Shown here: piece after piece, positions 7,398-49,510 of the stretch | How the letters are laid out: each line of letters begins with the position of its first letter | How positions within the stretch are numbered: the first letter of the stretch is position 1 | Position numbers and translations under genes: made by a program | Sequence record: MN850645.1 | DNA: 64,000 nt | DNA from: Escherichia phage outra | Direction: 5' to 3' (one strand) | Notes under the pieces: model-generated | Told to the model about the DNA's origin: nothing | Databases searched by the model: none | What the model saw: the letters and a program-made list of their open reading frames with translations, nothing else

Positions 7398-7408
7398 GGA
7401 GAAAATTT

Positions 7409-7828: not shown

Positions 7829-7844
7829 TAAAAGGAGTTTTTAA

Positions 7845-8855: not shown

Positions 8856-8857
8856 AA

Positions 8858-9595: not shown

Positions 9596-9598
9596 CAG

Positions 9599-13576: not shown

Positions 13577-13584
13577 GGAAAATA

Positions 13585-15660: not shown

Positions 15661-15671
15661 GGATCTCTAGT

Positions 15672-29687: not shown

Positions 29688-32267
29688 TCAGTGACAAGAC
29701 GCCCATGAGTTACCAACATCGTAACCAGCAGTGAGAGGTACATTAAGATTGTAATACTCACCAGCTTTATTAACAGCGATAGATGCTAATTCTCCAGCAC
29801 GACTGTAGGCTGTAAACCAACCACCTTTCGGAGATTCATGTACGTTAGCCCAAATCTTGCCAGTACGTTTCTCTTCCTCTTCTTTCCAGGCATTAACTTT
29901 ATCCAAACATTCTTTATCAATTTTCTTTTGTTCTTCTGGATCATCAACTTGAGTCCAACCTAAAGATTCTTTAGAGAACCATTTAAAATGCACCAGATCA
30001 CGAGTTACTTCAAGCTGTGCTTCATCGTGATATGCAATCATTTGTTGAACGAATGACTTATTTTTCCAGTCATCAACAAAAAAGTCAACAGCTAATCCTT
30101 CTTCTTCGATAAGATCGTCGTAGATAACCATTGCTCTTTTTGCACAAATAACACCACCACTCTGGAACAGAGAGTTAAGTATTGCGTGTGCAGATCGTGT
30201 AGGTACTTTCCTACCATCAATACCCAGAATGTATTTCTTACCTGTTTTAACCCAAAAGTCATGCAGACGTTCTTTAAGAAGCGCAAGAGGTTTTGCAGCT
30301 TCCCAGAAAGCATCGTATACAAGCTGTCCTGTATACATATCACTACCTATAGTTTTTGCTACTTTTGCAGCTTGAGCACCATAAGTAATACCATACTTAA
30401 CAGATTTAGCAGGGCTTCGTTCAAACTTACGACCAATAGTGTCAGAAATACGTCGAGCCATCATTGTATGAACGTCATTAGGTTTTTCCAATAACAGAGC
30501 ATTACAATATTCGTGTGGTTCCTGCTCGTACCGCCAACAGTAGTGTGATTCTATTTTTGCCTCAAGAGAATCAAAGTCATAACCAATTTGGAAGTATTTT
30601 GGAACTTCTACACCAAATAAGTTACGCATTTCATATCCGTACAGAGATGTTACACGTGGGATATTTGCTACTAGCCTATGTTTCATACGAGACGTAGCTG
30701 CATCACACGTTGCAGCAGGAGTTGGTATACGACCATCAGCCCTTACTGCTGCCAGATAACCTTTATCGTAATCCTCTTCATCTTCTTCCCAATCAGCACC
30801 ACCCCCTAGAATAGAGTTCCTACGGTGTTTATACGTAAGATACTGCACAATCTGCGTAGCATAAGGAAACTTTTCACCTAGTGCTTCCAAGTTAGGACAA
30901 ATATCTTTCTCTTGCCCTTTTGTAAAGGAAGGGTTCGTAAGCACTTTAACACCACGACCTTTAGCTTTAGCAATACGATCTCTTAGTTTCCATTCCAAAG
31001 TTTCTGGTGTGCACTCCAGATGATCACATCTGTCCTGGCAGAAGTTAGATGCTAATGTTTGATCAACATAGTCACGAATAGCTTTCTCCATTTGTGCTTC
31101 ATCTTTCTTAATCTTAGTGCCAGATTTAAGAGTGATATCTTTATCTTTATATTCAGATGGACTCCAACCTAAACCAACTAACCAGTTTTTAATATGTGTA
31201 GTGTCGTCTAAAGTAGCAGGTACTGTAGGATCACAAATAGGTTCTTCTGCTGGAATAGGTAGTTTAAACTCTTTACCTAATGCAAATAGCCACCAACCAT
31301 CTTCTTTTTGTACAAGTTCACCAGAATGTTTCTCTGCAAACTTTATCATGTTACTTGAAGGTTCACCATTCTTTTTAAACTGTAGTTTAGGTGGAATGAA
31401 TGATTTCAAATAACCTTTAGTAGCAGGTTTAGGAGGTAGCACAGGTTCTGCCTCTAAACGACATGCTTCCATTCGAGCATCCAGATCACGAATATTATCT
31501 TCTGCTTGTTTCATATTGAAAGCAAAGCCACGGTGCTCTTGACGTGTAATAATATCAGCTACACGTTGTTCTAAGTTAAATGGTTCAGACCACTTGTTAT
31601 AATCACCCCACTCTTCCATCAAATAACGGAACACTGCGGTGTTAGCTTTGTTATCGTAAATACAGTAATACAGCATATCTGCTGCAAATGTTTTAAATCT
31701 TTCAGTTTCAGGAATGTTTTTTCTAAAATCAATTTTAACATCCCCTCCAGCTTTCTTAGATAACTCTGCCAGACTATGACCACCGAAGCGATCAGGGTTT
31801 AGTGTCTTACTTAAGATCATAGTATCACAAATTTCAATGTTACTATTACCCCAAGTATTGTACTTAATACTGTAGTTGAGTTTAAAAAATAATTTAATTG
31901 CCAGTAAGTCAAAGTTAATGATGTTATGTCCAACTACTTTGGTAATTTTATAGTTTGAATTACCTTTAAATTTACCTGTTCCATTTACAAAATCAGGAAA
32001 ATCTTTAAGAGGGAAATGGGTATATTCTAAATGCTCATATTCCTCCAGTCGGTATTCATACTTTCCGTCAGTCTCAACATACGGACGACCATCGAAAAGA
32101 TATTTATCACCATCATGGAAAGCAATAATCTCTCCAGTATCATGACTTTCGCACACAATACAGTGCATTGCAAAACTATCTTTTAAACGATATGGACTTG
32201 CCAAGTAATCTACACTTTCGTCATTAAGCAAGTTGTTACTTTCAATGTCGAAAGTAAAAGCTCCCAT
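29688..32267 (-). CDS. DNA polymerase, family A, with 3'-5' exonuclease domain
   Basis: 859 aa; N-terminal FTFDIESNNL (Exo I DxE); motif A DFDSLEAKI, motif B RSPAKSVKYGITYG, motif C AYHDEAQLEV; RBS AAGGAGGG. Confidence 0.85.
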   Translation of the reverse strand: MGAFTFDIESNNLLNDESVDYLASPYRLKDSFAMHCIVCESHDTGEIIAFHDGDKYLFDGRPYVETDGKYEYRLEEYEHLEYTHFPLKDFPDFVNGTGKFKGNSNYKITKVVGHNIINFDLLAIKLFFKLNYSIKYNTWGNSNIEICDTMILSKTLNPDRFGGHSLAELSKKAGGDVKIDFRKNIPETERFKTFAADMLYYCIYDNKANTAVFRYLMEEWGDYNKWSEPFNLEQRVADIITRQEHRGFAFNMKQAEDNIRDLDARMEACRLEAEPVLPPKPATKGYLKSFIPPKLQFKKNGEPSSNMIKFAEKHSGELVQKEDGWWLFALGKEFKLPIPAEEPICDPTVPATLDDTTHIKNWLVGLGWSPSEYKDKDITLKSGTKIKKDEAQMEKAIRDYVDQTLASNFCQDRCDHLECTPETLEWKLRDRIAKAKGRGVKVLTNPSFTKGQEKDICPNLEALGEKFPYATQIVQYLTYKHRRNSILGGGADWEEDEEDYDKGYLAAVRADGRIPTPAATCDAATSRMKHRLVANIPRVTSLYGYEMRNLFGVEVPKYFQIGYDFDSLEAKIESHYCWRYEQEPHEYCNALLLEKPNDVHTMMARRISDTIGRKFERSPAKSVKYGITYGAQAAKVAKTIGSDMYTGQLVYDAFWEAAKPLALLKERLHDFWVKTGKKYILGIDGRKVPTRSAHAILNSLFQSGGVICAKRAMVIYDDLIEEEGLAVDFFVDDWKNKSFVQQMIAYHDEAQLEVTRDLVHFKWFSKESLGWTQVDDPEEQKKIDKECLDKVNAWKEEEEKRTGKIWANVHESPKGGWFTAYSRAGELASIAVNKAGEYYNLNVPLTAGYDVGNSWASCH

Positions 32268-32763: not shown

Positions 32764-34536
32764 TTAATAAGAACCAGCAGAGATGTTCTCTGGGTTACTT
32801 GTGTATTGATCGTAATCGTGAAGTGTAGCTGTTTTAATCTCATAGAAGAAACTACCTGCTGCACCAGTCTCTGAGAACTCACGGTTCTTTAGAATGTAGC
32901 AATATGTGCGGTTACGTTCCATAGGATCTTCAGCTTGTTTATCACGCTCCAGCGCAATTGTGATACCAGCACCTTTAGCAAGGAAGCTACTACCCATTGC
33001 ATCATCTTCTACAATATGTTCATTACTATTGTTAGAAGACTTTTTAACGTGTGAAATTACAACAATGGTTATTGCATACTCTTTCATAATGCGTTTCAGC
33101 CACGTCGCAAGTTCCTCTTGTTGTGACACGTCCATACCAGAAAGCAAATCAGAATAAGGGTCGATAACAAGAATGGTTACTCCGAAATAAATAATCATTT
33201 CCAGAACCTTCTCTTTAATCACATCTACGTTAGCTCCACGATCATCACAAACATAGAAACGTGGTGTTCCATCTTCTCGTTCGTAAAAATCACGAATCTT
33301 TTCTTCATTATCTTTTAAAATCTTTTCCTTCTCTTCTTTCGTTTTACGGTGAAGAGGGATATGCAAGAATGAAGACAGTAAGTTACGAGAATACTTCTTA
33401 TACGTTGCCTCCAAAGATAAAATACCAAGAGTATGTTCTGGATGTGCAAGAATAATGTGCTTTGTAATCTCGTTAACCAACAGTGTCTTACCAATACTTG
33501 TTTTTGCAAGTATAACAGTAATTTCTTCTTCTACCAAGCCTCCACCTAACATATTAGAAGCAACACGCATGAATGGAGGAAGGGTGATCATTTTAGCTTC
33601 CAGGCATTCCAAGGCTGCTTCATACAGTACGTTAGAAGCGTAAACACCAGCAGGTGTGTACAATTTAGCTTTGAAAAAGCGATCAATAAAATGATCAATT
33701 TTTCCTTCTACTAGTGCCTGGTTAGGATCTTTAACATCCGTTAGTTCCATCACGTAAACTTTATTACGTGGTAAGATTTTAACACATTTCTCAACTGCTG
33801 CACGTCCAGCTTCATCATTATCCATACATAGAACAATCTTTTTAAATTGATCTAAGAATTTATAACGATGTTGAAGCTGCTTATGCAGAGATGTTTCGCC
33901 ACAAGTACCAGATACTACAGCAGGAACAGGATATTTACCACCCTTGTTATAATCTTTTAGCATCTGTGTTGCAGCCAGCATATCGTGTTCACCACCAACG
34001 ATTAGAATAGTACCGCTGTGGTTACGATATTTAAACTCCCCAAAAAGATCACAATCCTTTCCTGTTTCACCGATAGGATGCGAGAAATCTTTTGGATCGA
34101 TACGTTGTTTATACCCAGCAATATTGTAATCTTTAGTTGTAGGGTATAGTGTTGAAATTACTTCGCCAGTAGCTTCATCGTACATATAACGTACACCGAA
34201 AGGCTTAGAGATATCTTCACGAATACCGCGATAACCTTTTGGATTAGTTCCAGTGCTGGCTTTTAGTTTATCATGTACTTCTGGATTAAACTCACTACCC
34301 AAGATATCCTCCTCTTCAATTTCTTCGCCGTGTGCATTTAACCATTTTTGATCAGGGATAGTAAAGCCACAAGAAAAACAATGTGCGCCTCGATGGTCTT
34401 CATCGGCATCTAAGCCATATACCATCAAATTGTTTTGTGATCGATCACGCCCTCCTTTCATACAACGAGGACACCCAGTATGTCCTTCTTGACTTAGATC
34501 AATGTTATACCCATATTTATTTACAACATAAGACAC
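32764..34536 (-). CDS. DNA primase / helicase (T7 gp4-like)
   Basis: 590 aa; N-terminal zinc ribbon (CPRCMKGG...CFSCGF), central TOPRIM-like region, C-terminal DnaB-type helicase with Walker A (AKTSIGKT); GTG start after AGGAG. Confidence 0.8.
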   Translation of the reverse strand: MSYVVNKYGYNIDLSQEGHTGCPRCMKGGRDRSQNNLMVYGLDADEDHRGAHCFSCGFTIPDQKWLNAHGEEIEEEDILGSEFNPEVHDKLKASTGTNPKGYRGIREDISKPFGVRYMYDEATGEVISTLYPTTKDYNIAGYKQRIDPKDFSHPIGETGKDCDLFGEFKYRNHSGTILIVGGEHDMLAATQMLKDYNKGGKYPVPAVVSGTCGETSLHKQLQHRYKFLDQFKKIVLCMDNDEAGRAAVEKCVKILPRNKVYVMELTDVKDPNQALVEGKIDHFIDRFFKAKLYTPAGVYASNVLYEAALECLEAKMITLPPFMRVASNMLGGGLVEEEITVILAKTSIGKTLLVNEITKHIILAHPEHTLGILSLEATYKKYSRNLLSSFLHIPLHRKTKEEKEKILKDNEEKIRDFYEREDGTPRFYVCDDRGANVDVIKEKVLEMIIYFGVTILVIDPYSDLLSGMDVSQQEELATWLKRIMKEYAITIVVISHVKKSSNNSNEHIVEDDAMGSSFLAKGAGITIALERDKQAEDPMERNRTYCYILKNREFSETGAAGSFFYEIKTATLHDYDQYTSNPENISAGSY

Positions 34537-34548
34537 AGGATTCTCCTA

Positions 34549-34818
34549 CTAAAATGATTCGTTTGTCTCCATAATATATTGCATTTCCAAATCTTCCATA
34601 TGTTTCTTAAATTGGTAAACAATTTCCGATGGGGAAATATCTATATCAAAAAGTTCTTTTGTACCAGAATAAAACCTAATACCATCAACAATAAGACCAC
34701 CATAATAATCCCAATCACTTTCTCGTGAGAAAGGGTTAGGTTCTTCATAATAGTAATCTACTTCAACAATAATAGGTTCTTTATTATCTTGTTTATACTC
34801 AAAATCAAAAGTGTTCAT
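34549..34818 (-). CDS. hypothetical protein
   Basis: 89 aa acidic ORF coupled to the upstream gene (TAATG overlap). Confidence 0.4.
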   Translation of the reverse strand: MNTFDFEYKQDNKEPIIVEVDYYYEEPNPFSRESDWDYYGGLIVDGIRFYSGTKELFDIDISPSEIVYQFKKHMEDLEMQYIMETNESF

Positions 34819-35762
34819 TATAAATCCTCGATAAGCAGTCTGCGGGTTTCATTTAAATCATCAATATTGTAGTTATCTCTTACATACTTAGCAAGAGCCA
34901 ATCCTTTCTCAATACAAACATCAGGAGATTCGATTAAGTATTCTACAATATCTTTCCACTCTTTAACTGAATCAGCAAAGAAGATTAGATCTTTAAATTC
35001 TTCAGTATAATAGTTCTCTCGTGGCGAACAAACGAGTGGCAAACCTTTAGCACCAGCTTCAAGAATTTTTAAATTACTTTTGGCATTATTAAAATGATTA
35101 TTTACTAATGGAGCTATGGAGATTTGATGACCATCGTATGCTTCCATATAACACTCATAAGGACGAATACCTTCATAAACACAATCTGGTTGAATATCTT
35201 CTTTAATTTGCAACCATTGAGCACTACTTAACTCTTCGTGATCTCTACGAAATCCACATAAAGTTAAATCTTTACCAAAATCAGGAAGAATTGCTAAATC
35301 ATGTTTATGGGTTTCACTTCCCGCCCAAACCAGTGGACTTTTAGAATAACGATCTTTAGTAAGAACAAACTGTCCTTCATCAAAAGGTAGTCCGTTAGGC
35401 ACAATATGTACATTATCATTGTATTGGCTTAATTCAACCTTTAATGCCGGAGTTGTTGTAGTTACAAGATCGCTTCTTTCAAGAAACCATTTTAGGTCAT
35501 CTCGGATTTGATTTTCAAATAGTCCTTCAAGCATATGTCCTTCAGGAATAATTAAAGAATCATCCAGATCCATTACCAATTTAAACCCAAGTTGTTTAAG
35601 AGCCAGGAAACCTGGCTTTCCACGTGTTGGTACACCATTGAACACAAAAATATTATGCTTAGGATTAATGGTCAGTTTGCGTTTATATGGCAAAATGATT
35701 CTATGAAAATCACATACACTATACTTTTCATTTCCGCGTGTGTCAAGAATAATATTAGGCAT
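34818..35762 (-). CDS. glycosyltransferase-like protein, GT-B fold candidate (paralog 1)
   Basis: 314 aa; clear paralog of the next gene (shared blocks VDLDD, PxDEGQFxLTKDR, YDGHxIxIAPLVxNxFNNxKSNLKILEAGAKGLP); the last block resembles the GT-B donor-binding motif. Confidence 0.45.
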   Translation of the reverse strand: MPNIILDTRGNEKYSVCDFHRIILPYKRKLTINPKHNIFVFNGVPTRGKPGFLALKQLGFKLVMDLDDSLIIPEGHMLEGLFENQIRDDLKWFLERSDLVTTTTPALKVELSQYNDNVHIVPNGLPFDEGQFVLTKDRYSKSPLVWAGSETHKHDLAILPDFGKDLTLCGFRRDHEELSSAQWLQIKEDIQPDCVYEGIRPYECYMEAYDGHQISIAPLVNNHFNNAKSNLKILEAGAKGLPLVCSPRENYYTEEFKDLIFFADSVKEWKDIVEYLIESPDVCIEKGLALAKYVRDNYNIDDLNETRRLLIEDL

Positions 35763-35773
35763 ATAACTCCTTG

Positions 35774-36787
35774 TTAAAGACTTTCAATAACTTGACGACG
35801 CAGTTCATTGGCATCTGCAAGATTATAATTAAGACGAACGTGTTCTGCAAGCATCATACCACGATCTTCTGTGTATCTAGGGTTCCTCATTAGCTTGACA
35901 ACTTCATAATGCCAAGATGCTTTAGAGTCTGCATAGATAACAGCCTTTGCATCTACCGGATTGAAGTACGGCAGCACAGGAGAACAGATAATAGGAAGAC
36001 CCTTTGCACCTGCTTCCAAAATCTTCAAATTGCTTTTACAGTTGTTGAAGTCATTATCTACCAGGGGAGCAATTGCAATGCTGTGACCGTCATACACAGA
36101 CATATACTCACCTAAATTTTTAATAGCTGGTTTATACTGTGCATTTGGAATTTTACGTTTTATTTTAACCCACTCCGCAGTAGTTAGATACTGACTGTTA
36201 TTTCCAACAGGTGCAGAAGGATACACTTCATACCCTGCAATTGTCAATAGTGTATCATCAAATGTATTAGCTACAAGAGATAAATCAGGCTCGTGGCTTG
36301 CTCCTCCAGCCCAGATAATAGGCGTGTCAGAATTACGGTCTTTTGTCAAAGTAAATTGACCTTCGTCGTAAGGTAGTGCGTTTCTAATTACGACAACATT
36401 ACGATTTAAATGACGAATTTTGTAAGCTAGGTATTCTGTTGTTACAGTAACAACATCTGCTAACTTAACCATCTCTACAATAGTCTTTGAATGATTAGTA
36501 AATACGCCAGCCATATAATGTTCAGGATTAAGTGAATAAAAGTCATCTAAATCAACAATAATCTTAACACCTTGTGCCTTCAGGCGTTTAACCTCGTCTG
36601 CTCCACGAGAATACACTCTATTAAAAACTAAAACGTCTTTCTTAGGTTTAAACGTATTTCCAGCAAATGGCATTACAATACGATGGTAATCACAACCACT
36701 GCCTAACTTATTATCACACTTAAGTACAGGAGTATTAGGATTTACCATATTTTTGAGCCTCCTCATAAGAGATAAAAGTTTTACCAT
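35774..36787 (-). CDS. glycosyltransferase-like protein, GT-B fold candidate (paralog 2)
   Basis: 337 aa; tandem paralog of 34818-35762. Alternative in-frame starts at 36766 and 36748, the latter with a GAGGAGG RBS. Confidence 0.45.
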   Translation of the reverse strand: MVKLLSLMRRLKNMVNPNTPVLKCDNKLGSGCDYHRIVMPFAGNTFKPKKDVLVFNRVYSRGADEVKRLKAQGVKIIVDLDDFYSLNPEHYMAGVFTNHSKTIVEMVKLADVVTVTTEYLAYKIRHLNRNVVVIRNALPYDEGQFTLTKDRNSDTPIIWAGGASHEPDLSLVANTFDDTLLTIAGYEVYPSAPVGNNSQYLTTAEWVKIKRKIPNAQYKPAIKNLGEYMSVYDGHSIAIAPLVDNDFNNCKSNLKILEAGAKGLPIICSPVLPYFNPVDAKAVIYADSKASWHYEVVKLMRNPRYTEDRGMMLAEHVRLNYNLADANELRRQVIESL

Positions 36788-37421
36788 TGCGAAGATCCTC
36801 CAAGGATTGTTTATATTGTTCCCAGTTTACACCAATCCCCTGTTCTTTCTCTTCTTTTGACAGATTCGCAAAAGGTAAAGGATTGTCTCCAAATACATCA
36901 TCAGGATGGATAAACGCCATAATTCGAATAGGACATGGCACGCCTTGAATACCTCGGTTCAAACCTGCCAGTGGAACGCGATGAATCCACTCTGCATCTT
37001 CATATCCATAACCGTGGGTGTATGAGCGGAAATAGCCAGCTTTCTCAATAACTGCACGGGAATACATACCAAACTGGCACATACCTAGTTCCCAAATAAC
37101 CACTTCCCCTTCAATACCTTTTACTTTATCTTTAAAGTATTCAGGCATACCAAAGAAATCCCAACCATTTTCCTTCGCCTGTTTTACAAAATATGTTTCC
37201 CAACCTTGAACAACAGGATAGCAATCATCATCAAAAATAAACCAGTAATCATACCCTTCATCATAAAACTTTTTCATCAGTTCATTACGAGCATATGCAA
37301 CACCTTTTCGCTCCCGATCATACTGTACAACAAAAGTAGCATTAGGATCAGTCACAAGATAATCTTTAAGAGGACGCTTACCTACAGTAATAACACCAAC
37401 ACCAATTTTTGTATTTTCCAA
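36735..37421 (-). CDS. glycosyltransferase, family 2-like (GT-A fold)
   Basis: 228 aa; TTG start after AAGGAG; N-terminal IGVGVITVGKR, then RKGVAYARNELMK and DxD motif FIFDDDCYP, as in GT2 enzymes. Confidence 0.65.
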   Translation of the reverse strand: MENTKIGVGVITVGKRPLKDYLVTDPNATFVVQYDRERKGVAYARNELMKKFYDEGYDYWFIFDDDCYPVVQGWETYFVKQAKENGWDFFGMPEYFKDKVKGIEGEVVIWELGMCQFGMYSRAVIEKAGYFRSYTHGYGYEDAEWIHRVPLAGLNRGIQGVPCPIRIMAFIHPDDVFGDNPLPFANLSKEEKEQGIGVNWEQYKQSLEDLRNGKTFISYEEAQKYGKS

Positions 37422-37430
37422 AATAACTCC

Positions 37431-37994
37431 TTAAATAATTTTATTCATGTCTTGACAATGTAAAAGGTGTGAAATAGCTTTTCTAGGATCATCATTACCT
37501 AAACGGTATGTGTGAAATAAATATAACCCACGTAGTAAACCTAGCCTTTTATTGTTAGCGTGCAATGCTTTAGAGAAAATTATATCAAACTGTATTGATC
37601 TTTCCTCAAAAGGGATTTCATTCCACAGACTCTTACGAAAGAGAAGAAAGAATCCTGCTAAGATAGCATCTGTAGGTACTTCCTCTATTGAGTTTCCCCA
37701 TTCTAGATGTGCTCTTTTTGCAATCTCAATGTGGTGTAGTATATTCGGATCTTCACTTCTTTCATTATTAAATAATTGATATGTTGATCCCAATCTATTA
37801 CAAGATGCACCAAGAACATCAAAATCAGGATTTGAACGGACTATTGATTCCAGCCAAGCAGGTTGTTCTGGAAGAAGAAACATTGTATCAATGTCTCTTA
37901 GGCAAATCCAACTATCTTCTGGTAAGACACTTATTGTGTCATTGATACCTTTTCCAATATCTCCAGAAAGATAGGGAGTTATGTGAAATATCAT
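37431..37994 (-). CDS. putative glycosyltransferase (DxD-containing), first gene of the GT block
   Basis: 187 aa; contains ICLRDIDTMF; GGAGGG RBS; assignment is weak and rests mainly on context. Confidence 0.3.
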   Translation of the reverse strand: MIFHITPYLSGDIGKGINDTISVLPEDSWICLRDIDTMFLLPEQPAWLESIVRSNPDFDVLGASCNRLGSTYQLFNNERSEDPNILHHIEIAKRAHLEWGNSIEEVPTDAILAGFFLLFRKSLWNEIPFEERSIQFDIIFSKALHANNKRLGLLRGLYLFHTYRLGNDDPRKAISHLLHCQDMNKII

Positions 37995-38022
37995 ACTCCC
38001 TCCGTATTATTACTTTAGCATT

Positions 38023-38042
38023 TTTAGACTAAAAAGTCTAAA
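38023..38042. promoter_or_regulatory. 20 bp perfect palindrome TTTAGACT-AAAA-AGTCTAAA (operator or weak terminator candidate)
   Basis: Lies in the 57 nt gap between the gene ending at 38052 and the first GT-block gene starting at 37994. Confidence 0.3.
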
Positions 38043-38051
38043 TGGTTTTAC

Positions 38052-38246
38052 CTATTGATTACGTTTTGCGAGTTCCATTTGGATAGCTAAACTGTGATCT
38101 CGTGCTTCCATATACTCTTTATACGTTTCATTAAGATGATCACGACAAACATCACGCAGTTTAATCAATTTATCTGTAGGGATACCACTAAGATCATCCC
38201 AAGATTTTACAACTTCGCCAGTATCATTGATCCCAATGGTTTTCAT
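38052..38246 (-). CDS. hypothetical small protein
   Basis: 64 aa; AAGGAGG 6 nt upstream of the ATG. Confidence 0.4.
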   Translation of the reverse strand: MKTIGINDTGEVVKSWDDLSGIPTDKLIKLRDVCRDHLNETYKEYMEARDHSLAIQMELAKRNQ

Positions 38247-38742: not shown

Positions 38743-39252
38743 TTAGCGATAGAATTGATGTTCTTTGTAGCGGTACACTAGAACCATATCTTTTTCCCAG
38801 TGTGCTCTTATTGTAGATTTTTTAAAGTATAATGCTCCTTTTGTAATATCTAATGCAATTCGTAATTCTGGAAAATGCGTATCGAGATAAAGTAGACGTT
38901 CTGCTATAGTCTTAGCTTCCTTCCACTTATCACGTTCCATAACGTTGAATGTCTTTGTGTAAGAGAATTGTCCTTTTTGAAACAAAACTTCTTTTATAGT
39001 ATCAGGGAAATATGAATCTCTAGCCCTATTCAATACTACATTACCAACAGCAGACATACCTCGCTTTCCTTGATTACGACTTTCTGCATAGATTGCACAA
39101 GCTAATAGATTTTCTTTACTATCACGCTTTGTACACTTGTGAACTACTTTAGCAGTTTTTACGTTTGCAGCTTCGGCTTGCGCCACAACAGGTGTAAATG
39201 TAAAAGCAGTTAAGGATAGTAACGCAATTGCGACAAAGGTTTTTATTGACAA
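38743..39252 (-). CDS. secreted cell-wall hydrolase, SleB / Hydrolase_2-like
   Basis: N-terminal signal peptide (FVAIALLSLTAFTFTPVVAQA); core CAIYAESRNQGKRGMSAVGNVVLNRA resembles the SleB-type hydrolase signature; TTG start after TAGGAGG. Confidence 0.55.
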   Translation of the reverse strand: MSIKTFVAIALLSLTAFTFTPVVAQAEAANVKTAKVVHKCTKRDSKENLLACAIYAESRNQGKRGMSAVGNVVLNRARDSYFPDTIKEVLFQKGQFSYTKTFNVMERDKWKEAKTIAERLLYLDTHFPELRIALDITKGALYFKKSTIRAHWEKDMVLVYRYKEHQFYR

Positions 39253-39960: not shown

Positions 39961-39990
39961 TCTATTTAAAATATGCGCCCCGAAGGGCGC
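39961..39990 (-). terminator. rho-independent terminator after terD
   Basis: Hairpin GCGCCC-TTCG-GGGCGC followed on the minus strand by ATATTTTAAAT. Confidence 0.6.
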
Positions 39991-39999
39991 TATGATTTA

Positions 40000-40596
40000 T
40001 TACTCGAACCAATCGTCGCCAGCGCCAAACGCTTTAACTACATCATAAATGTCAAGTCCAGCTTTACCTACACCATATGCTTTCAGTTTCCATTCGCTAT
40101 CTTCCCGCACCAGGGAGGCAACGTGGCAAATGGTATTACCTGCAAGTTCTGGAGCCAAGAAGTCAAAATCCAGCAGTTCAACGTTACGTTCATCATCGAA
40201 GATTTTAAGGAAACCTTCGGTAGCGTGACCAAGGCGTTTCTTACCCGTTTCGTCATCAATAGTGATTACGAATGCAATTTCCTGTGCTTCAGCAGAGATA
40301 TTATCCAGTGTAACATCAATCTGCTCCATTTGTCCTACACCGTCACGAACATCTTCACCTGCAAAAGTAGAACGTTCAGGATCAAATTTCTGTGCGTAGC
40401 ATACCAGGTGGCGAGGAGACAACAGTTCCGGCAGACCAGATGCATTGTGTCGGCAAATCAGAGCACTAACATCCAGATCCAGTTTTTCGTTAGATTTCCA
40501 AGAGAATTCCAGACGAATGCGTTTCAGTGCTGGTGCAATCTTTTTCAGAGAAACTTTTTCGCTAGAACCTTTTTTCAGGGAAATTTTCTGAGTCAT
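40000..40596 (-). CDS. terD: TerD-domain protein (tellurite resistance / stress protein family)
   Basis: 198 aa; alignable by eye along its length to bacterial TerD (KISLKKGSSEKVSLKK / DLDVSALI / GEDVRDGVGQMEQIDVTLDNI / SEWKLKAYGVGKAGL), including the Ca-binding-type acidic motifs; RBS AAAGGAGA. Confidence 0.8.
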   Translation of the reverse strand: MTQKISLKKGSSEKVSLKKIAPALKRIRLEFSWKSNEKLDLDVSALICRHNASGLPELLSPRHLVCYAQKFDPERSTFAGEDVRDGVGQMEQIDVTLDNISAEAQEIAFVITIDDETGKKRLGHATEGFLKIFDDERNVELLDFDFLAPELAGNTICHVASLVREDSEWKLKAYGVGKAGLDIYDVVKAFGAGDDWFE

Positions 40597-40633
40597 AATT
40601 TATTATCTCCTTTGTTGTTAATTTACGTTGTCT

Positions 40634-40661
40634 ATTTTACTAATCTTTTCTACAAAGTCAA
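40634..40661 (-). promoter_or_regulatory. sigma70-like promoter upstream of terD (TTGACT-16 nt-TAAAAT)
   Basis: On the minus strand, -35 TTGACT (40661-40656) and -10 TAAAAT (40639-40634), about 35 nt upstream of the terD start. Confidence 0.5.
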
Positions 40662-40668
40662 GCGTTTT

Positions 40669-41463
40669 TTACGCTTTTGCTCCAAATTTTTTAACCCACT
40701 CGCCAAACTCTTCGGATAGCAGTTTATCGTAAAGTTCTTCGTCAGACAAGGACAAATCTGCAATACCGATAAAATCAACGTTATCGTATTCTTTTGCCAA
40801 GTCTTTCAGGAATTTAAAGTTTGCATTACCTACACCAACCATAAACCAGTAAACAGGAGTGTTGCGGTGTTTGTTCAGCAAACTACGTACTGCTGAAGTA
40901 TCCATGTTCTCCCCGTCAGTTTGGAAGAAAATCATTGCAGGAGTACGATCAACTTGTGCATCAGTATCTACAACCTGTTCTACAACAGTACGTGTAACTT
41001 CTACACGTTCTTTTTTACCAGTTAGTTTAGCAAGGAAACCCTTAGCCGGAACTTCTTCATACTCAACGACTTCGCGTGTAATATTTTTCATAGGTACACT
41101 ACCGAAGTATGTATCATAGATCTCTTGCATTACTGGAGCATAAGCTGTACCACCATTGATGCAAACATTAGACATACAAGAGCCGACATAATCATCATAT
41201 ACATCAGCCGTTGCAGGAGGCAGTTCAAAAGAAGAACTATTGAAAGCCCACATGTCAATCTGTGCATTATCATCAAACTTCATACCAAACGGCAGTAGCT
41301 TACCTACAAAATCACTAACAGTGCCATCACGATACAGCTCACACATACTACCCGAAATATCTAAGGCGCTACCGACACGAAGAACAACATCGTTAATCTT
41401 TTTCTTACGCAGAGATACGGTAAGAGTTTCTTGACGTTTTTTAAGACTGATTTTATTGGACAT
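40669..41463 (-). CDS. vWA-domain protein (TerY-like)
   Basis: 264 aa; MIDAS motif DISGSM near the N-terminus and later FQTDGEN; basic N-terminal KISLKKRQ; adjacent to terD and telA. Confidence 0.55.
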   Translation of the reverse strand: MSNKISLKKRQETLTVSLRKKKINDVVLRVGSALDISGSMCELYRDGTVSDFVGKLLPFGMKFDDNAQIDMWAFNSSSFELPPATADVYDDYVGSCMSNVCINGGTAYAPVMQEIYDTYFGSVPMKNITREVVEYEEVPAKGFLAKLTGKKERVEVTRTVVEQVVDTDAQVDRTPAMIFFQTDGENMDTSAVRSLLNKHRNTPVYWFMVGVGNANFKFLKDLAKEYDNVDFIGIADLSLSDEELYDKLLSEEFGEWVKKFGAKA

Positions 41464-41464
41464 A

Positions 41465-41734
41465 TTATTTCTCCTTTCTGAGTGTAATGTTAGTAACTTC
41501 TAAATCCACTTCTACCATTTCTGTATCATACGAAATACAGCTAAGTTGACCTCTTTGCGAACCGTTCAGACACATTGCTTGGTTTGTATTAACTTTAATA
41601 AACACTAAGTTTCTGAACGTATCTAAACCAGAATCTTGATAGGCAACATAATATACAAATGTATCACCTACGTCAAGTTCTCCAAAACATTTAGGTTCAT
41701 CTGATTTGTCGTCTTTGATATTAAATTTAAGCAC
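41465..41734 (-). CDS. hypothetical protein (GTG start)
   Basis: 89 aa; GTG at 41734 after AAGGAGGAG; overlaps the upstream gene by 8 nt. Confidence 0.35.
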   Translation of the reverse strand: MLKFNIKDDKSDEPKCFGELDVGDTFVYYVAYQDSGLDTFRNLVFIKVNTNQAMCLNGSQRGQLSCISYDTEMVEVDLEVTNITLRKEK

Positions 41735-42290
41735 TATCTCCTCCTTTACCTACTTTCCAACCTAAATAGAAAGCCTCTCTAGTGATTTTTTGCAACTCGT
41801 TTAAAGAGATAGTTACAACTAAATCATCTTCAATTTCTAGCTTTGAGTCTTCTTCTGTCTCAATGCAAGTATTATGCACTTTGTGGTAAGGATTGTCAAC
41901 ACGTTTAAATTTATTATTTTCAGTGTTGAAGAAGCAATCTGGATCTTCTTCTCCATCACCCCAACCCTGGTTAGGATCTTCTTCAGATCTTTCTGTTGGG
42001 ATCTCACCTGTAAAGTGCTCTTCTAATACCAGAGCAATCCCATCTCCAAGATCGGAAGAGAACATCAAATTACAAACTTCTTCCCAAGGCATAGACCACT
42101 TAAATCTTTTACGATTGCCATGTTTATCTTCTTCGTTAGAGAAAACACTACCATAGCTATCATAATTCCCATACATCTCTTCGACAACCTTACCACCTTT
42201 CAAAAGAAATAGGTAGCAAGGAGAGCCATCAAAAGAGGTAGAAAGAGCAGCATTACCAGACTCTTTGCACAAGAAACTAAAACACCCCAT
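41727..42290 (-). CDS. hypothetical acidic protein
   Basis: 187 aa; start coupled to the upstream stop. Confidence 0.4.
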   Translation of the reverse strand: MGCFSFLCKESGNAALSTSFDGSPCYLFLLKGGKVVEEMYGNYDSYGSVFSNEEDKHGNRKRFKWSMPWEEVCNLMFSSDLGDGIALVLEEHFTGEIPTERSEEDPNQGWGDGEEDPDCFFNTENNKFKRVDNPYHKVHNTCIETEEDSKLEIEDDLVVTISLNELQKITREAFYLGWKVGKGGDSA

Positions 42291-42490
42291 TATACACCAG
42301 CCTTAAGATCAATTAAAGCCAAAGTTGTTTCAGAGTGTGTTTGCTCGTCTACAGGTGCAGTCATATGATAATACAAAAAATCTTCGGCATCATACCAATC
42401 TGATTCTTGACCTTGTTTCCAACCATCAATGAAAGCATCTTCCATAATGGTTTGCAATTCTTCACGAGTTAAGTGAATATCTTTACTCAT
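42290..42490 (-). CDS. hypothetical small protein
   Basis: 66 aa; translationally coupled on both sides. Confidence 0.4.
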   Translation of the reverse strand: MSKDIHLTREELQTIMEDAFIDGWKQGQESDWYDAEDFLYYHMTAPVDEQTHSETTLALIDLKAGV

Positions 42491-42696
42491 TACACATTCT
42501 CCTCTTTTACCAATTCCATCGTTGAATTGTCAAAACCATCTTTAGAAGAATAGGTATAGACAGAACGTAGTTCTCGCAGGACAGTGAATACATTAGGATC
42601 ATCTAACCAAGCATCCTGGAGGAGAACATAACGATCTTCATTATCATACTGAACAGCAATCATAGAACCAGACAGTTTGTAAATTTTAATATTCAT
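42490..42696 (-). CDS. hypothetical small protein (start revised)
   Basis: The ATG at 42696 has AAGGAGA 8 nt upstream and lies after the telA stop; the track start at 42723 is a GTG inside that RBS. Confidence 0.4.
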   Translation of the reverse strand: MNIKIYKLSGSMIAVQYDNEDRYVLLQDAWLDDPNVFTVLRELRSVYTYSSKDGFDNSTMELVKEENV

Positions 42697-42709
42697 AATA
42701 TATTTCTCC

Positions 42710-43813
42710 TTAAAGTAGACCACGTTTAACAGTTTGAATCATACCATCTTCAAGAGATTGCACTTCTTGAATGTAATCAATACGAGCAGCACGGGCTTCA
42801 GTGTTGATTCGGTTAGTTTCTTCCAACATTTTAACCAAGTTTTCTTGATCACGACGTAATGTTTCAATATCCAATACTTGACGATTAGCAAGTTGTGTAG
42901 CTTCAATTTGGTTTTGTGCAGCCAAATCACTACCCATTGCAATCGCAGCATTAAATTCATTTAGTACATTGTTCTGTGTATCGGCTGCTTTCTTCTGGCG
43001 TAGACTTTCAATATACATAGAAAAGTTTGCAGAGTAAGCAGGGATAACATTATTCACAATATTACGGGCTGATCGCATCAAACTTGCAGATACTTTCTGC
43101 ATACTTTGTACACGTGGCCCCATCTGAACACATAGTAAGCGTAAGGCTTTCAGGTCTGCAATACGAATTTCAAGCAGATCCATAGTATCACGAGTACGTT
43201 GACGCTCTTCTACCTCATTTTCAGGCAGTGTATTAAGGCGAATTTCTTCTTTTTCATAAGTAGCTGTTAGAAGCTCTATATCCCTGTTTAAACTAAGGGC
43301 ATATTTTGCAATAGCCTCTTCTAAACGTTGCAGATATCGTAAAGAATCTTCTTCTTTTTTCAAGTCTGTTTGGAGTGTCTTTACCAAACCTTCAATACGG
43401 TTATTGATGGTGTCAAATTCTCCAAACAAATCTTCTTTCATACCTAAAACTTTCTTAACTAGTTTACCTAAACCTTTAGATTGTTTAATAGAGTTAGGAT
43501 CAAGTTGCTTTGCTTGCTTAATAAGCGCAGTTAAACGTTCACTCATTTCATCTCCCTGAGATGAACGCTGGTGTTTAAGCACTTCAGCATTAAGGTTACG
43601 AAGAGTAAGTCCTGCATCAGCACCAACCTGTTCAATCTCTTCACGAGACATTGGAGGCAGCATTTGTACAGGTCGTGCAACAGCAGGGGCATATACAGGA
43701 CTTGCATCCATAGCAGTTGGAGCAAACAAAGACTTACTTTTTTCTGTTGTTGCCGTGAATACACTCATTTCAGACGGTTTGCTTTTTACGGCACTGATAA
43801 AAGGACTGGACAT
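42710..43813 (-). CDS. telA: TelA-like toxic-anion-resistance protein
   Basis: 367 aa, predominantly helical coiled-coil with the size and architecture of TelA/KlaB/YaaN-family proteins; GGAGGAAA RBS; flanked by terD/vWA and terC. Confidence 0.5.
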   Translation of the reverse strand: MSSPFISAVKSKPSEMSVFTATTEKSKSLFAPTAMDASPVYAPAVARPVQMLPPMSREEIEQVGADAGLTLRNLNAEVLKHQRSSQGDEMSERLTALIKQAKQLDPNSIKQSKGLGKLVKKVLGMKEDLFGEFDTINNRIEGLVKTLQTDLKKEEDSLRYLQRLEEAIAKYALSLNRDIELLTATYEKEEIRLNTLPENEVEERQRTRDTMDLLEIRIADLKALRLLCVQMGPRVQSMQKVSASLMRSARNIVNNVIPAYSANFSMYIESLRQKKAADTQNNVLNEFNAAIAMGSDLAAQNQIEATQLANRQVLDIETLRRDQENLVKMLEETNRINTEARAARIDYIQEVQSLEDGMIQTVKRGLL

Positions 43814-43861
43814 TCAATTTCCTCCATATTCTTTAGTAGATGGTGATACTTCTATACCACC

Positions 43862-43889
43862 ATCATAACACAAGTTAAGTATTAAACAA
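43862..43889 (-). promoter_or_regulatory. candidate sigma70-like promoter upstream of telA (TTGTTT-16 nt-TATGAT)
   Basis: -35 at 43889-43884 and -10 at 43867-43862 on the minus strand, about 45 nt upstream of the telA ATG. Confidence 0.35.
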
Positions 43890-44733
43890 ACATATCTAAA
43901 TAATTTGTAGTAATAAATGCTCCATCTGCTTCCAGATTAACATAACCCGTGGTATTAGCAGTTAAGAAATCCAGATCGAAGGACTCTTTAACACCCCGTA
44001 CCTCAACACGAGAGATATCGAATACAGGTAGTGTAACAGCCTCTTCGTGCAATACCGTACCTTTGTAGGTTGCCTTAATGATAAACTTGATATTACCCGT
44101 TCCAGCATCATACAAAACACTTTCAAACCCTTTGAGAGTATATTTATCACCAGAAGTGAAGTGCAAAGTTGCTTTGTTTACAGTACGTTTTTTACGAGGA
44201 GTTCCTTTCACACGTTTATGATCACTACGTTTTTTGTATTTAGGAATGAATACAAACGATACACTCTCAAGAAAGGTATCAACATCAAGGATTTTAATAT
44301 CCTCTGTTGCAGCAAATTTTGAAGTCGTTGCATCAAAATGCTTTTCCCTGCGATCATACATAAAGATATCAAACCGATCTTCTAAATCAAACAAATTATG
44401 TATTTTAATTTCAGAATGCTTGCGCATTGCAGCAACCTTGAACTCTTCAAAACGTGGGTGTTCTACAAGTTCTTCAAGTTTTACACCAAAGACAGTATAT
44501 TGCTTCGAAGTCTTTTCTGGTGTTGGCATTACAGAAGCATAATCACCGATTGCGCTCTTAAAGCAAAATTGTTCTTGACCTGTATTTTTACCAACGAATT
44601 TACAGTATTCGTCATTGTGCATACTTTCCTTGGTAGTACCAACAAACTCAAAACCATCTTTATTCTTCTCAAGAATTTCTTGATTAAAGATCCAACCTTC
44701 CAGGCGATACACTTTACCAACTTCTAGTTTCAT
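43882..44733 (-). CDS. hypothetical protein
   Basis: 283 aa; AAGGAGA 5 nt upstream; no motif recognised. Confidence 0.4.
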   Translation of the reverse strand: MKLEVGKVYRLEGWIFNQEILEKNKDGFEFVGTTKESMHNDEYCKFVGKNTGQEQFCFKSAIGDYASVMPTPEKTSKQYTVFGVKLEELVEHPRFEEFKVAAMRKHSEIKIHNLFDLEDRFDIFMYDRREKHFDATTSKFAATEDIKILDVDTFLESVSFVFIPKYKKRSDHKRVKGTPRKKRTVNKATLHFTSGDKYTLKGFESVLYDAGTGNIKFIIKATYKGTVLHEEAVTLPVFDISRVEVRGVKESFDLDFLTANTTGYVNLEADGAFITTNYLDMFV

Positions 44734-44768
44734 CTGTTTCTCCTTCTTATTTAATCTGTATTAAATTA

Positions 44769-45359
44769 TTAACGACGACGTGAGCTACTAAAACTACGTT
44801 TCGACGAAGAATAACTTTTCGAAGACTTACTATAAGAGCTAATAGGACTTGAGTAAGACTTACGAGCAGAGTAATCACTATTCACTTTTGTTGTTGATGG
44901 GCGTGAATACGTTTGTACACTTTGCTGCTTAATTGTGTTTTGTTTAGTGGTTGTATATGTATTCCCTTGTTTATCATAAAACCTATGCTTTTGTGTTGTA
45001 TATGCTTTACTATTAGTTGTAGGAGCAGCGTTGTTATTGATAATTGTTGTATTGCTACCGCCATCTCTATAACCACCACCGCCACTATTACCACTCAACA
45101 TATGACCAAGAAGCATACCTGTAGCAAACTCACCTACGCCAGAAGAACCACTGCCGCCTCCTTGCACAACAACTGTTGAAGGTTGTGCAGGTGCTGCTTG
45201 AACAACTTGAGGTGCAGGCTGATTTACATATTGTTCATCTACCATCTGATTTGGTGTTTGTTGGTAACGTTGATTTTGTACATTTTCAGAATCATCACAA
45301 CCTACCAGCAATGCACTACCTAAAACAACTGCAACAATAAAAGATTTAATGTTTTTCAT
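44769..45359 (-). CDS. lipoprotein with glycine-zipper motif and Ser/Tyr/Lys-rich basic C-terminus
   Basis: Start revised to the ATG at 45359 (GAGAGGG 7 nt upstream); signal peptide with lipobox LLVGC; GGGSGSSGVGEFATGMLLGHMLSGNSGGGG resembles glycine-zipper outer-membrane lipoproteins. Confidence 0.5.
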   Translation of the reverse strand: MKNIKSFIVAVVLGSALLVGCDDSENVQNQRYQQTPNQMVDEQYVNQPAPQVVQAAPAQPSTVVVQGGGSGSSGVGEFATGMLLGHMLSGNSGGGGYRDGGSNTTIINNNAAPTTNSKAYTTQKHRFYDKQGNTYTTTKQNTIKQQSVQTYSRPSTTKVNSDYSARKSYSSPISSYSKSSKSYSSSKRSFSSSRRR

Positions 45360-45552
45360 TTGTAACCCTCTCATTTAAAATCTCAACACAATTTTTAAAA
45401 TCCCTAGAGAAACAATACATCTGTTCTCCGTTCCTGTTGATAGTAATTGTATGGTTATCAATATATGTTGTCAAGATAAAAATCAAACAAAACAAACCTA
45501 GAGCAAAACAAATATTTTCAAACAGAATCCAAAGAACACGTAAAACCACCAT
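45346..45552 (-). CDS. small membrane protein
   Basis: 68 aa; one strongly hydrophobic N-terminal helix; GAGGTG RBS just downstream of the terC terminator. Confidence 0.35.
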   Translation of the reverse strand: MVVLRVLWILFENICFALGLFCLIFILTTYIDNHTITINRNGEQMYCFSRDFKNCVEILNERVTNEKH

Positions 45553-45561
45553 CAGATCACC

Positions 45562-45583
45562 TCAATAAAGCCCCCGAAGGGGC
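45562..45583 (-). terminator. rho-independent terminator after terC
   Basis: Hairpin GCCCC-TTCG-GGGGC followed on the minus strand by TTTATTG. Confidence 0.55.
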
Positions 45584-45591
45584 TTAATGAA

Positions 45592-46569
45592 TTAAGCAAC
45601 AGCCTGGTCTTCTTTTTCAGGGAAGATTAAACTTGCAAGAACACCCAGCCCAAGAGTACCTAACACAATATACATACTGATCGTCGGGTCAATGTGTGCT
45701 GGCAGGAAACTCACTTTTGCGTGCAGAGTTTCTGCAAACGGGTGATACATCAGTTTTACACCCACAAACACCAGGACTACGATAACTGCTTTCTCCAGAT
45801 GAACCAAATACTTCAGTGCAACACTAAGAACAAAGAACAGAGCACGTAAACCTAAGATTGCACAGAGCATCGAAGAGAACACCAGCAGAGGTTCTTGTGT
45901 CACTGCAATTACTGCTGGAACAGAGTCTACTGCAAAGATTACGTCAACCATTTCCATTACAAACACACAAACCAGAGCCGGAGTTGCTACACGAACACCA
46001 TTTTTGATTGTGAAGAACTTCTCACCATCCATCTGATCAGATACAGGGAACAGCTTACGAACAATGCGAGTAGCCCAGTGTTTAGAGTAATCAACTTCTG
46101 CATCATTATCTCCAGCGAATACCATTTTAGCCGCACAGAAAAGGATGACAGCACCGAAGAAGATATTAACATACCAGCCCAAACTCAACAAGTAAGTACC
46201 TACTGCTACAAACACACCTCGGAAGACAATCGCACCTGCAATACCCCAAAGTAGAATCTTGTGCTGCAAGTGTGTGCTTTTAATACCAAAACTTGCGAAT
46301 ACTGCTACAAATACTACTAAGTTATCTACAGAAAGAGATTTCTCCAACACATACCCACTCAAGAACAAGCTCGCAAAATCAGCACCGTGTTGGAAGTATA
46401 CAAAACCATAGTAGGCTAATGATACCCCAATCCAGAAAATTGACCAGCCAATTGCAGATTTAAATGAAATTTCTTTGTTTTCTCTGTGTCCAAAGAAGTC
46501 AATACAAATCGACAAGACTAAAATACCCACTAAAACAACCACATCAATAATTGGGAAACCCAGTTGCAT
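45592..46569 (-). CDS. terC: TerC-family integral membrane protein
   Basis: 325 aa; multiple TM helices; EKSLSVDNLVVFVAVF matches the TerC-family signature; RBS AAAGAGGAG. Confidence 0.75.
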   Translation of the reverse strand: MQLGFPIIDVVVLVGILVLSICIDFFGHRENKEISFKSAIGWSIFWIGVSLAYYGFVYFQHGADFASLFLSGYVLEKSLSVDNLVVFVAVFASFGIKSTHLQHKILLWGIAGAIVFRGVFVAVGTYLLSLGWYVNIFFGAVILFCAAKMVFAGDNDAEVDYSKHWATRIVRKLFPVSDQMDGEKFFTIKNGVRVATPALVCVFVMEMVDVIFAVDSVPAVIAVTQEPLLVFSSMLCAILGLRALFFVLSVALKYLVHLEKAVIVVLVFVGVKLMYHPFAETLHAKVSFLPAHIDPTISMYIVLGTLGLGVLASLIFPEKEDQAVA

Positions 46570-46587
46570 TCTTTTCTCCTCTTTAAT

Positions 46588-46606
46588 GCGGAGGACAATC
46601 CTCCGC
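46588..46606 (-). promoter_or_regulatory. stem-loop in the terC 5' leader (GCGGAGG-ATTGT-CCTCCGC)
   Basis: Perfect 7 bp G/C stem between a predicted promoter and the terC RBS; no U-tract. Confidence 0.4.
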
Positions 46607-46618
46607 TCTATGTCTTAT

Positions 46619-46646
46619 ACTATAAACTGTTTTTAAAGAAAGTCAA
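46619..46646 (-). promoter_or_regulatory. sigma70-like promoter upstream of terC (TTGACT-16 nt-TATAGT)
   Basis: -35 at 46646-46641 and -10 at 46624-46619 on the minus strand. Confidence 0.45.
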
Positions 46647-46895
46647 CTAGTTCAGTTCTGTAATTTTAAGTTTATCTTCTTTGTTAATGACAGGGAAAGC
46701 TACAGCATCACCTACGTCATCAATAAAGCAAATAGCAAGACCACCTTCCACTTTGCTGATTTGACCATTAAAGGCGTGATACGGGGCAGGAACTTGATCT
46801 CCATCTTCAAGGAGAATAGCCTCGTAAACCTTGCCGATAGTACAATCACGAGTGTTTCTAAATTTTTCAAGCACTTCAACATTTACTTTACGCAT
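46647..46895 (-). CDS. hypothetical protein
   Basis: 82 aa; GAGAGGA 8 nt upstream. Confidence 0.4.
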   Translation of the reverse strand: MRKVNVEVLEKFRNTRDCTIGKVYEAILLEDGDQVPAPYHAFNGQISKVEGGLAICFIDDVGDAVAFPVINKEDKLKITELN

Positions 46896-46909
46896 ATAAA
46901 AATCCTCTC

Positions 46910-47116
46910 TTATTTGTTAGATTGAAAGATACCACGAAGTACCGCAAGAATGAACGTCACACAGACTACACTCCAAAACGTTACAGGAACATGATGCCAG
47001 TCTAAGCCGATAATGTCAATCATATAGTTGTATGCTAAAAGCAGTAGCCAACTAGGGATTAACACAATCAAAAACACAACAATAAAACAACCTAATACTG
47101 CTAAAACACCTGCCAT
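46910..47116 (-). CDS. small membrane protein (two TM helices)
   Basis: 68 aa; AAGGAGA 5 nt upstream; two hydrophobic helices. Confidence 0.45.
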   Translation of the reverse strand: MAGVLAVLGCFIVVFLIVLIPSWLLLLAYNYMIDIIGLDWHHVPVTFWSVVCVTFILAVLRGIFQSNK

Positions 47117-47125
47117 ACTTTCTCC

Positions 47126-49341: not shown

Positions 49342-49510
49342 TTTTAATCCTCCGTCCAAAAGAATATCATCTGCTTAATTTTATTGATCTCTTGATGTAG
49401 TAACTTTCCAGCATGTGATTGATCTTTAATATTGACAGCAAGAATTTCAAGTTCCGTTAGTTTTTCTTGGATAGCTTTATATTCATCATCTGTAAGCATT
49501 TTCTTCCCCT

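Follow-up and report, generated by a model that had tools for sequence, protein, structure and literature searches.

The stretch of DNA analysed here, 64,000 nucleotides of Escherichia phage outra (MN850645.1; hereafter the window, to which positions refer unless another record is named), carries on its minus strand four closely packed open reading frames (ORFs) for glycosyltransferases (GTs), which we call A to D, each preceded by a Shine-Dalgarno sequence. In order of transcription these are D (37994 to 37431, 187 aa), C (37421 to 36735, 228 aa, with a TTG start), B (36787 to 35774) and A (35762 to 34818, 314 aa), followed by an ORF for an acidic protein of 89 aa (34549-34818, minus strand; phrog_4240), an uncertain member of the module, whose ATG shares one base with the stop codon of GT A (TAATG), so that the two are translationally coupled. 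The ORF list puts the four genes exactly where an earlier analysis from the letters alone (the sequence-only reading) had placed them. For GT B there are two plausible starts, with a strong ribosome-binding site at each (region 36746-36787): the ATG at 36787 gives 337 aa and a 53-nt overlap with C, and that at 36748 gives 324 aa and a 14-nt overlap. The shorter form is favoured, because alignments with homologues begin at about residue 17-20.

Region 34500-38100 is 100% identical to vB_EcoM_ESCO8 (OM386653.1, 148,860 bp), in which window position w corresponds approximately to record position 143090 - w, and 98-99% identical to 50-odd other Justusliebigvirus phages (Stephanstirmvirinae, phi92-like). 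Positions 1-26288 hold, on the plus strand, genes for tail, baseplate and fibre, and a long minus-strand block begins with those for a Dam-like methyltransferase, a DNA polymerase (29688-32267) and a primase-helicase (32764-34536). The sequence-only reading had set the GT genes between the primase-helicase gene and replication genes, which is right on one side: the primase-helicase gene adjoins, but what lies upstream of the block is small ORFs, a SleB-type hydrolase gene and a TerD/vWA-TerF/TelA/TerC cluster, not replication genes. Since a scan for promoters and terminators returned counts no higher than in shuffled sequence, we claim no operon boundaries.

Enzyme families, donor supply and descent of the block

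All four proteins are confirmed as glycosyltransferases, a paralogous pair of GT-B enzymes (A and B) and two GT-A enzymes with a DxD motif (C and D), in agreement with the families and folds first read from the translations. A and B, which are GT4-like and share 41% identity, each have two Rossmann-like domains, the C-terminal one for nucleotide-sugar binding. Against the Pfam group-1 GT domains A scores 26.8 bits (PF13524, cutoff 25) and B 14-18 bits, below the cutoff, and B matches phrog_7162 with an E value of 7e-149. In the region of the EX7E-type motif the pair has an invariant E235, in KSNLKILEAGAKGLP, which we take as the second Glu of the motif; read by eye rather than from a formal alignment, the position of the first Glu is occupied by K or S.

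C and D each consist of a single Rossmann-like GT-A domain with an invariant DxD. C matches phrog_2456 (E 2e-79), its family alignment contains invariant FxFDDD and YGxED motifs (in C, DDD at 37224-37232 and YGYED at 36996-37010), and its more distant homologues carry PF00535 (Glycos_transf_2) together with PF02709 (Glyco_transf_7C); on these motifs and domains we assign C to the GT-A enzymes of the Gal/GalNAc-transferase type. D is a minimal GT-A enzyme with its DxD at 37887-37895. Because a sequence search of A, C and D against the chains of the PDB gave no significant match, fold assignment needed models. The structural neighbours of D include wall-teichoic-acid and polysaccharide GT-A enzymes such as RmlT, TarP and TarS, and in a comparison with viral structure models a domain of Cellulophaga gp39 was the sole close relative found. 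None of the four GTs contains a hydrophobic 19-residue window, as expected of soluble proteins, and their computed isoelectric points are 5.1, 8.9, 5.2 and 5.6.

A likely source of donor sugar is encoded elsewhere in the same genomes. Those of phi92-like phages carry rmlB, rmlA, rmlC and rmlD, the genes of a deoxythymidine diphosphate (dTDP)-L-rhamnose pathway, beside genes for glutaredoxin, class I ribonucleotide reductase (RNR), ThyX and thymidine kinase, and RmlA to RmlD all score above the NCBIfam equivalog cutoffs (TIGR01207 471, TIGR01181 442, TIGR01221 259.8 and TIGR01214 253.6 bits). The ESCO8 record has the rml genes at 33537-36798, beyond the window and about 68 kb away from the GT genes. 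Phage records with the rml cluster number 55 and those with the GT block 56, with the same breakdown by organism name except for one Klebsiella record, a co-occurrence at genus level. We infer that rhamnose is one of the donor sugars.

The GT-B gene is single-copy in Klebsiella phage KP13-16 and in the metagenomic contigs L007, L008 and L023, where the order is D, C, B-like gene, small ORF, primase-helicase and PolA, and its product there shares 46-52% identity with B and 39-42% with A; for single-copy homologues in relatives the ranges are also given as 42-52% for B and 37-40% for A. As this single gene is nearer B than A, we take D-C-B to be the ancestral unit; A is a lineage-specific duplicate of B common to Justusliebigvirus and Phapecoctavirus, with B nearer the ancestral single gene. 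In L008 and L023 a gene for a short-chain dehydrogenase/reductase (SDR)-type nucleoside diphosphate-sugar dehydratase/epimerase lies between D and C (D-SDR-C-B in L023), linking the GTs with the provision of sugar nucleotides. In L007, L010 and L023 a small ORF, in which an SDWD motif is invariant, stands between the GT-B gene and the primase-helicase gene.

Virion proteins as candidate acceptors

We propose that the four soluble enzymes probably act in sequence in the cytoplasm, with host uridine diphosphate (UDP)-sugars and dTDP-L-rhamnose from the phage RmlBACD as donors, and that they would make a short chain of at most four sugars. Its acceptor would most likely be not DNA but one structural protein of the phage or several, modified in the cytoplasm before the virion assembles or as it does so. 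We put the probability that a rhamnose-containing glycan is built on phage structural proteins at about 0.37. A protein acceptor is favoured, with virion proteins as the most plausible, both by where the homologues lie in their genomes and by the evidence against DNA given below; glycosylation of the virion, like that of the host surface, had rightly been named as an alternative in the sequence-only reading.

Each of the three GT families is small, with 57, 18 and 47 clusters from a search of 5.8 billion proteins, and their members come nearly all from phage-like contigs. Homologues in six other lineages, though not the genes of the window or its close relatives, adjoin packaging or head genes. 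Four prophage loci in Pseudomonas chromosomes (L025-L027 and L029, at about 6800-16300 in locus coordinates) have a C-like gene (41-45% identity) and a B-like gene (41-43%) directly upstream of genes for a phage metallopeptidase, a DUF2280 small terminase, the large terminase, the portal and MuF. Directly before the C-B pair, in three of the four, comes a gene for a small Ig-like (Big_2) protein that has a Thr-rich linker, TVTTTPVATGASP, and is a candidate glycan acceptor. Holin- and spanin-like lysis ORFs, as read from their translations, precede the Big_2 gene.

On contig L017 a packaging and head operon, divergent from the replication operon, opens with the C-like and B-like genes, and on contig L021 a B-like GT gene lies about 4 kb upstream of genes for a hexapeptide acetyltransferase and a GT2 enzyme, which stand directly before the small terminase gene. 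Streptomyces phage KimJongPhill has an SDR gene (41% identity to the SDR of L008), a methyltransferase gene and a B-like GT gene directly upstream of its small terminase gene. D-like domains are encoded between the portal and capsid genes of Cellulophaga phages and, in L013, between the terminase and portal genes, with GT2, deacetylase and methyltransferase genes. Finally, GT C has tblastn matches in 351 mycobacteriophage records (about 26% identity, E about 1e-7), Cheoctovirus phages and Che9c included, to GTs at the right genome end. Judged from these neighbourhoods, the best reading of the cassette is that of a mobile module for building glycans which moves between unrelated phages and appears beside virion genes more often than beside DNA-metabolism genes.

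Two bacterial loci suggest a protein acceptor in another way. In Burkholderia dolosa (L006, 3025-8440) and Trinickia (L028, 2807-8960) a gene for an inverse-autotransporter, invasin-type adhesin (IAT_beta, Invasin_D3, Big_1) is followed by one for a protein of about 560 aa and then by a B-like GT gene, an arrangement that suggests adhesin glycosylation. Aah/AIDA-I and TibC/TibA are known cases of cytoplasmic adhesin glycosyltransferases. As with Aah/AIDA-I, the soluble GT gene of these Burkholderiaceae adjoins that of an autotransporter-type adhesin, but Aah and TibC are heptosyltransferases of a different family from the Burkholderia and Trinickia enzymes. The spore-crust glycosylation of Bacillus subtilis also combines a GT-A enzyme (SpsA), a protein with a PF13524 GT-B domain (CgeB) and RmlABCD homologues (SpsI-L), but it is cellular, not viral, and the resemblance is at the level of fold and family only.

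The glycosylation of capsid and tail tube in mycobacteriophages would be an analogous model for the phi92-like cassette. PMC12363180 and PMC11256854, citing Freeman et al. 2023, attribute this glycosylation to phage GTs and implicate Che8 gp108-110, Corndog gp38 and Myrna; the GT genes of Che8 lie at the far right genome end. Like these phages, the phi92-like group has several soluble GT-A and GT-B enzymes and no DNA-hydroxylating partner, and C has distant but significant homologues among the right-end mycobacteriophage GTs, in families paralogous to those implicated by experiment. Unlike them, it infects a Gram-negative host, carries its cassette in the replication region and has its own dTDP-rhamnose pathway.

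Several observations weigh against virion glycosylation. C has no significant similarity to Che8 gp108, gp109 and gp110, with BLASTP E values of 0.2 or worse, and hhalign gives the D family a probability of 0.1% against gp110. The block sits with replication genes in the window and in all the close relatives (L007, L008, L010 and L023), so that gene context gives a mixed picture. No convincing Ser/Thr-rich C-terminal extension such as that described for Che8 was seen on the phi92-like capsid or tube proteins or on the capsids encoded next to homologous GT genes, and our literature search found no report of glycosylated phi92-like virions. The terminase-adjacent position is also a common slot for morons, and it has been reported for some DNA-hypermodification clusters. 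A contig binned as Acetivibrio (L030, 371-10739) carries a B-like GT gene and a second, GT1 gene in a DNA-metabolism context, among genes for a MazZ-like dATP/dGTP diphosphohydrolase, RNR, RecA, GroES and a Holliday-junction-resolvase-like protein; the MazZ-like family is linked to 2-aminoadenine genomes. L009 and L014, with large sugar clusters near replication genes, are further counter-examples.

Taken to its full extent, glycosylation of structural proteins would make the phi92-like and Phapecoctavirus phages the first with Gram-negative hosts shown to glycosylate their own virions, by means of D-C-B(-A) and a rhamnose-containing O-glycan made from phage dTDP-rhamnose, and Pseudomonas prophages and many uncultured phages would do likewise with the mobile C-B cassette. 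We advance this wider proposal only tentatively and regard it as doubtful; its acceptors would be structural proteins, possibly Big_2 Ig-like fibre or decoration proteins.

Envelope, DNA and other possible acceptors

The alternative that survives best, although we think it unlikely, is remodelling of the host envelope. The GTs would work at the inner membrane face, on lipid A-core or on undecaprenyl diphosphate (Und-PP)-linked intermediates of enterobacterial common antigen (ECA) or O-units, and the added rhamnose-containing residues would mask the phage's own receptors, causing superinfection exclusion and sparing progeny from adsorption to debris. Such a target is consistent with the receptors of phi92-like phages, which are ECA and a glucose of the lipopolysaccharide core (PMC8594841), with the classical role of dTDP-rhamnose as an O-antigen precursor, and with the name 'putative disaccharide synthase' that the BASEL annotators gave to A and B. 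The structural neighbours of A, many of them enzymes of lipid-linked glycans, such as a Campylobacter Und-PP-glycan GalNAc transferase (8dqd), WlaC, PimA/PimB, WaaG, WaaB and WbnH, point the same way, as do the teichoic-acid and polysaccharide enzymes near D. However, the block lacks any membrane-anchoring segment, flippase, polymerase or Gtr-type component, the homologues adjoin virion or adhesin genes rather than polysaccharide loci, it is hard to see what a strictly lytic phage with so short a cycle would gain, and we found no such phenotype in the published literature. Serotype conversion of the Gtr type (GtrABC) was rejected, as the four GTs have no membrane segments and the block no Gtr-like ORF.

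The sequence-only reading had preferred sugar-modified DNA, built on hydroxymethyl pyrimidines, and it was not the first suggestion of the kind: Olsen et al. 2020 noticed the rml pathway and speculated on rhamnosylation of hydroxymethylated nucleotides (PMC7552041), and 'rhamnose modification' recurs in a later paper as a modification of the genome (PMC10844046). The GTs would here place rhamnose or other sugars on a hydroxylated pyrimidine of the phage DNA and so block restriction and CRISPR. The conserved synteny of the GT block with replication genes keeps this idea alive, but we judge it improbable, also in a sparse or site-specific form, and bulk base glycosylation is very unlikely.

The characterised DNA-sugar pathways all begin from a hydroxylated pyrimidine, whose genes usually cluster with those of the GTs (PMC13326640). 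It is supplied by ThyA-family enzymes, which make hydroxymethylcytosine, hydroxymethyluracil and, in RB69 and DLP3, 5-hydroxycytosine (PMC13326640), or by the alternative route of a methyltransferase and a TET-like 5mYOX (bioRxiv 10.1101/2023.12.21.572611). The window, as had already been seen, shows no hydroxymethylase, and the whole genome gave the same picture, with no ThyA-family hydroxymethylase or 5-hydroxycytosine synthase and, as the only thymidylate-synthase-like protein, a divergent ThyX. In the 98%-identical genome of EmilieFrey this protein of 323 aa, annotated 'thymidylate synthase', is encoded at MZ501063 124839-125810 (7840-8811, minus strand, in locus L003); it scores 36.9 bits against Pfam Thy1 and 35.5 bits against TIGR02170 (cutoff 87.9), has no relative in the PDB by sequence, and carries a putative enzyme motif that we read as THR...S...SxR, not RHR. 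A Pfam and PHROGs scan of the unannotated EmilieFrey proteins of at least 170 aa, a scope that leaves smaller proteins and novel folds outside, found no TET/JBP protein, 2-oxoglutarate dioxygenase or other base-modifying enzyme.

The genome does encode a C5-cytosine methyltransferase (PF00145, 149.8 bits), about 60 kb from the GT block, and two N6-adenine methyltransferases, one of them Dam-like. A phage with Dcm-like and Dam-like methyltransferases of its own is implied to have ordinary, unmodified C and A in its DNA. Moreover, the BASEL authors describe phi92-like phages as 'exceptionally susceptible' to restriction-modification 'despite a putative dTDP glycosylation machinery', a sensitivity that extends to type I, II and III systems (PMC8594841). 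It is on account of the missing hydroxylase, the phage's own methyltransferases and this sensitivity that we consider bulk glycosylation of bases very unlikely. The literature on this group yielded no experimental nucleoside analysis and no virion glycoproteomics.

Comparison with known DNA-glycosylating systems leads in the same direction. T-even phages glucosylate hydroxymethylcytosine by means of AGT and BGT and need a dCMP hydroxymethylase to do so, whereas here there is a ThyX and no ThyA homologue, restriction systems act on the DNA (PMC8594841), dTDP-rhamnose and not UDP-glucose alone is the probable donor, and A and B are nearer GT4 enzymes than AGT or BGT. The T4 alpha- and beta-glucosyltransferases rank 18 and 33 among the structural neighbours of A, which is thus no closer to them than to dozens of other GT-B enzymes. 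The clusters for arabinosyl-5-hydroxycytosine in RB69 and DLP3 and those of the TET/5mYOX type likewise join several GTs to a phage sugar-nucleotide pathway and build oligosaccharides, but they require a ThyA-homologous 5hodCMP synthase or a methyltransferase with 5mYOX (PMC13326640; bioRxiv 10.1101/2023.12.21.572611), and neither was found here. C has a weakly TAGT-like N-terminus, as in TAGT systems, but the match to Pfam TAGT (24.1 bits) is under the gathering score of 27.5 and covers residues 16-79 only, that is, the nucleotide-binding and DxD region. The C-B pairs of temperate Pseudomonas prophages, for their part, lie by terminase genes, with no hydroxylase among the ORFs examined.

We give little credence to another cytoplasmic target, be it a host protein modified for host takeover (in analogy to EarP-type arginine rhamnosylation or to glycosylating toxins) or a small molecule such as the nucleoside-like compound that the neighbouring Ter/PRTase/HAD cluster has been proposed to make, as specific evidence for any such target is lacking, four GTs suggest an oligosaccharide and not a single regulatory sugar, and no Ter cluster accompanies the C-B pair in L017 or the Pseudomonas prophage loci.

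RefSeq and BASEL records already label the four genes as those of glycosyltransferases, and publications have discussed the 'dTDP glycosylation machinery'; the cassette is an uncharacterised member of the phage glycosylation cassettes. New here are the fold of D, the ancestral D-C-B core with A as its duplicate, the ThyX nature of the thymidylate-synthase-like protein with no recognisable hydroxylase, and the recurrent occurrence of the C-B pair beside genes for packaging, for the head and for Ig-like or adhesin proteins. Phages of the phi92-like and Phapecoctavirus groups have broad host ranges and are candidates for use in therapy and biocontrol, and an investment of seven or eight genes (three or four GTs and RmlABCD) is conserved across the two genera. 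The literature repeatedly states or implies that 'rhamnose modification' guards their DNA (PMC7552041, PMC10844046), which the plating data contradict (PMC8594841). Glycosylated virions, if real, would bear on how therapeutic phages are recognised by antibodies and bind to mucus and on their stability and pharmacokinetics, and would extend virion glycosylation beyond actinobacteriophages; sparse DNA rhamnosylation, if real, would be a new DNA modification with no known hydroxylase.

Neighbouring genes and further observations

Among the structural proteins examined, in EmilieFrey, only the tail sheath has a low-complexity, hydroxyl-rich terminus: the sheath ends in NSQNSNSSTVSS, and the EmilieFrey orthologue of the window's sheath protein (1827-3233, plus strand) has the Ser/Asn-rich tail NRTANSQNSNSSTVSS.

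Upstream of the GT block, in the early or middle region, lies a gene for a SleB-type cell-wall hydrolase (38743-39252, minus strand; Pfam Hydrolase_2, E 7.5e-20) with an apparent signal-like hydrophobic segment at its N-terminus; it is present besides the endolysin that is annotated at another place in related genomes. Beyond it a complete Ter-type cluster spans 40000-49359, also on the minus strand, with genes for TerD (40000-40596), a vWA-TerF-like protein (40669-41463), TelA (42710-43813), TerC (45592-46569), a macrodomain protein (47126-47959), a ComF-like PRTase_3 protein (47835-48692) and a HAD-like protein (48685-49359). The Pfam assignments were made on the EmilieFrey orthologues, and the macrodomain and HAD labels are BASEL annotations. 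In the relative L023, TelA, vWA-TerF, TerD, hydrolase and PRTase_3 genes likewise precede the GT block. A perfect GC-rich hairpin, GCGCCCCGAAGGGCGC (39975-39990), stands between the TerD gene and its downstream neighbour; it is the strongest terminator-like site within 29-45 kb and possibly the limit of a transcription unit upstream of the GT genes.

Two records labelled as Campylobacter phages also carry genes of the block. GT A is present in 'Campylobacter phage A145' (MG065645) at 99% and in 'B15' (MG065650) at 76% protein identity, and A145 has GT D at 99%; the A145 and B15 enzymes match the E. coli Justusliebigvirus and Phapecoctavirus versions respectively, and the C. jejuni host labels of both records look doubtful.

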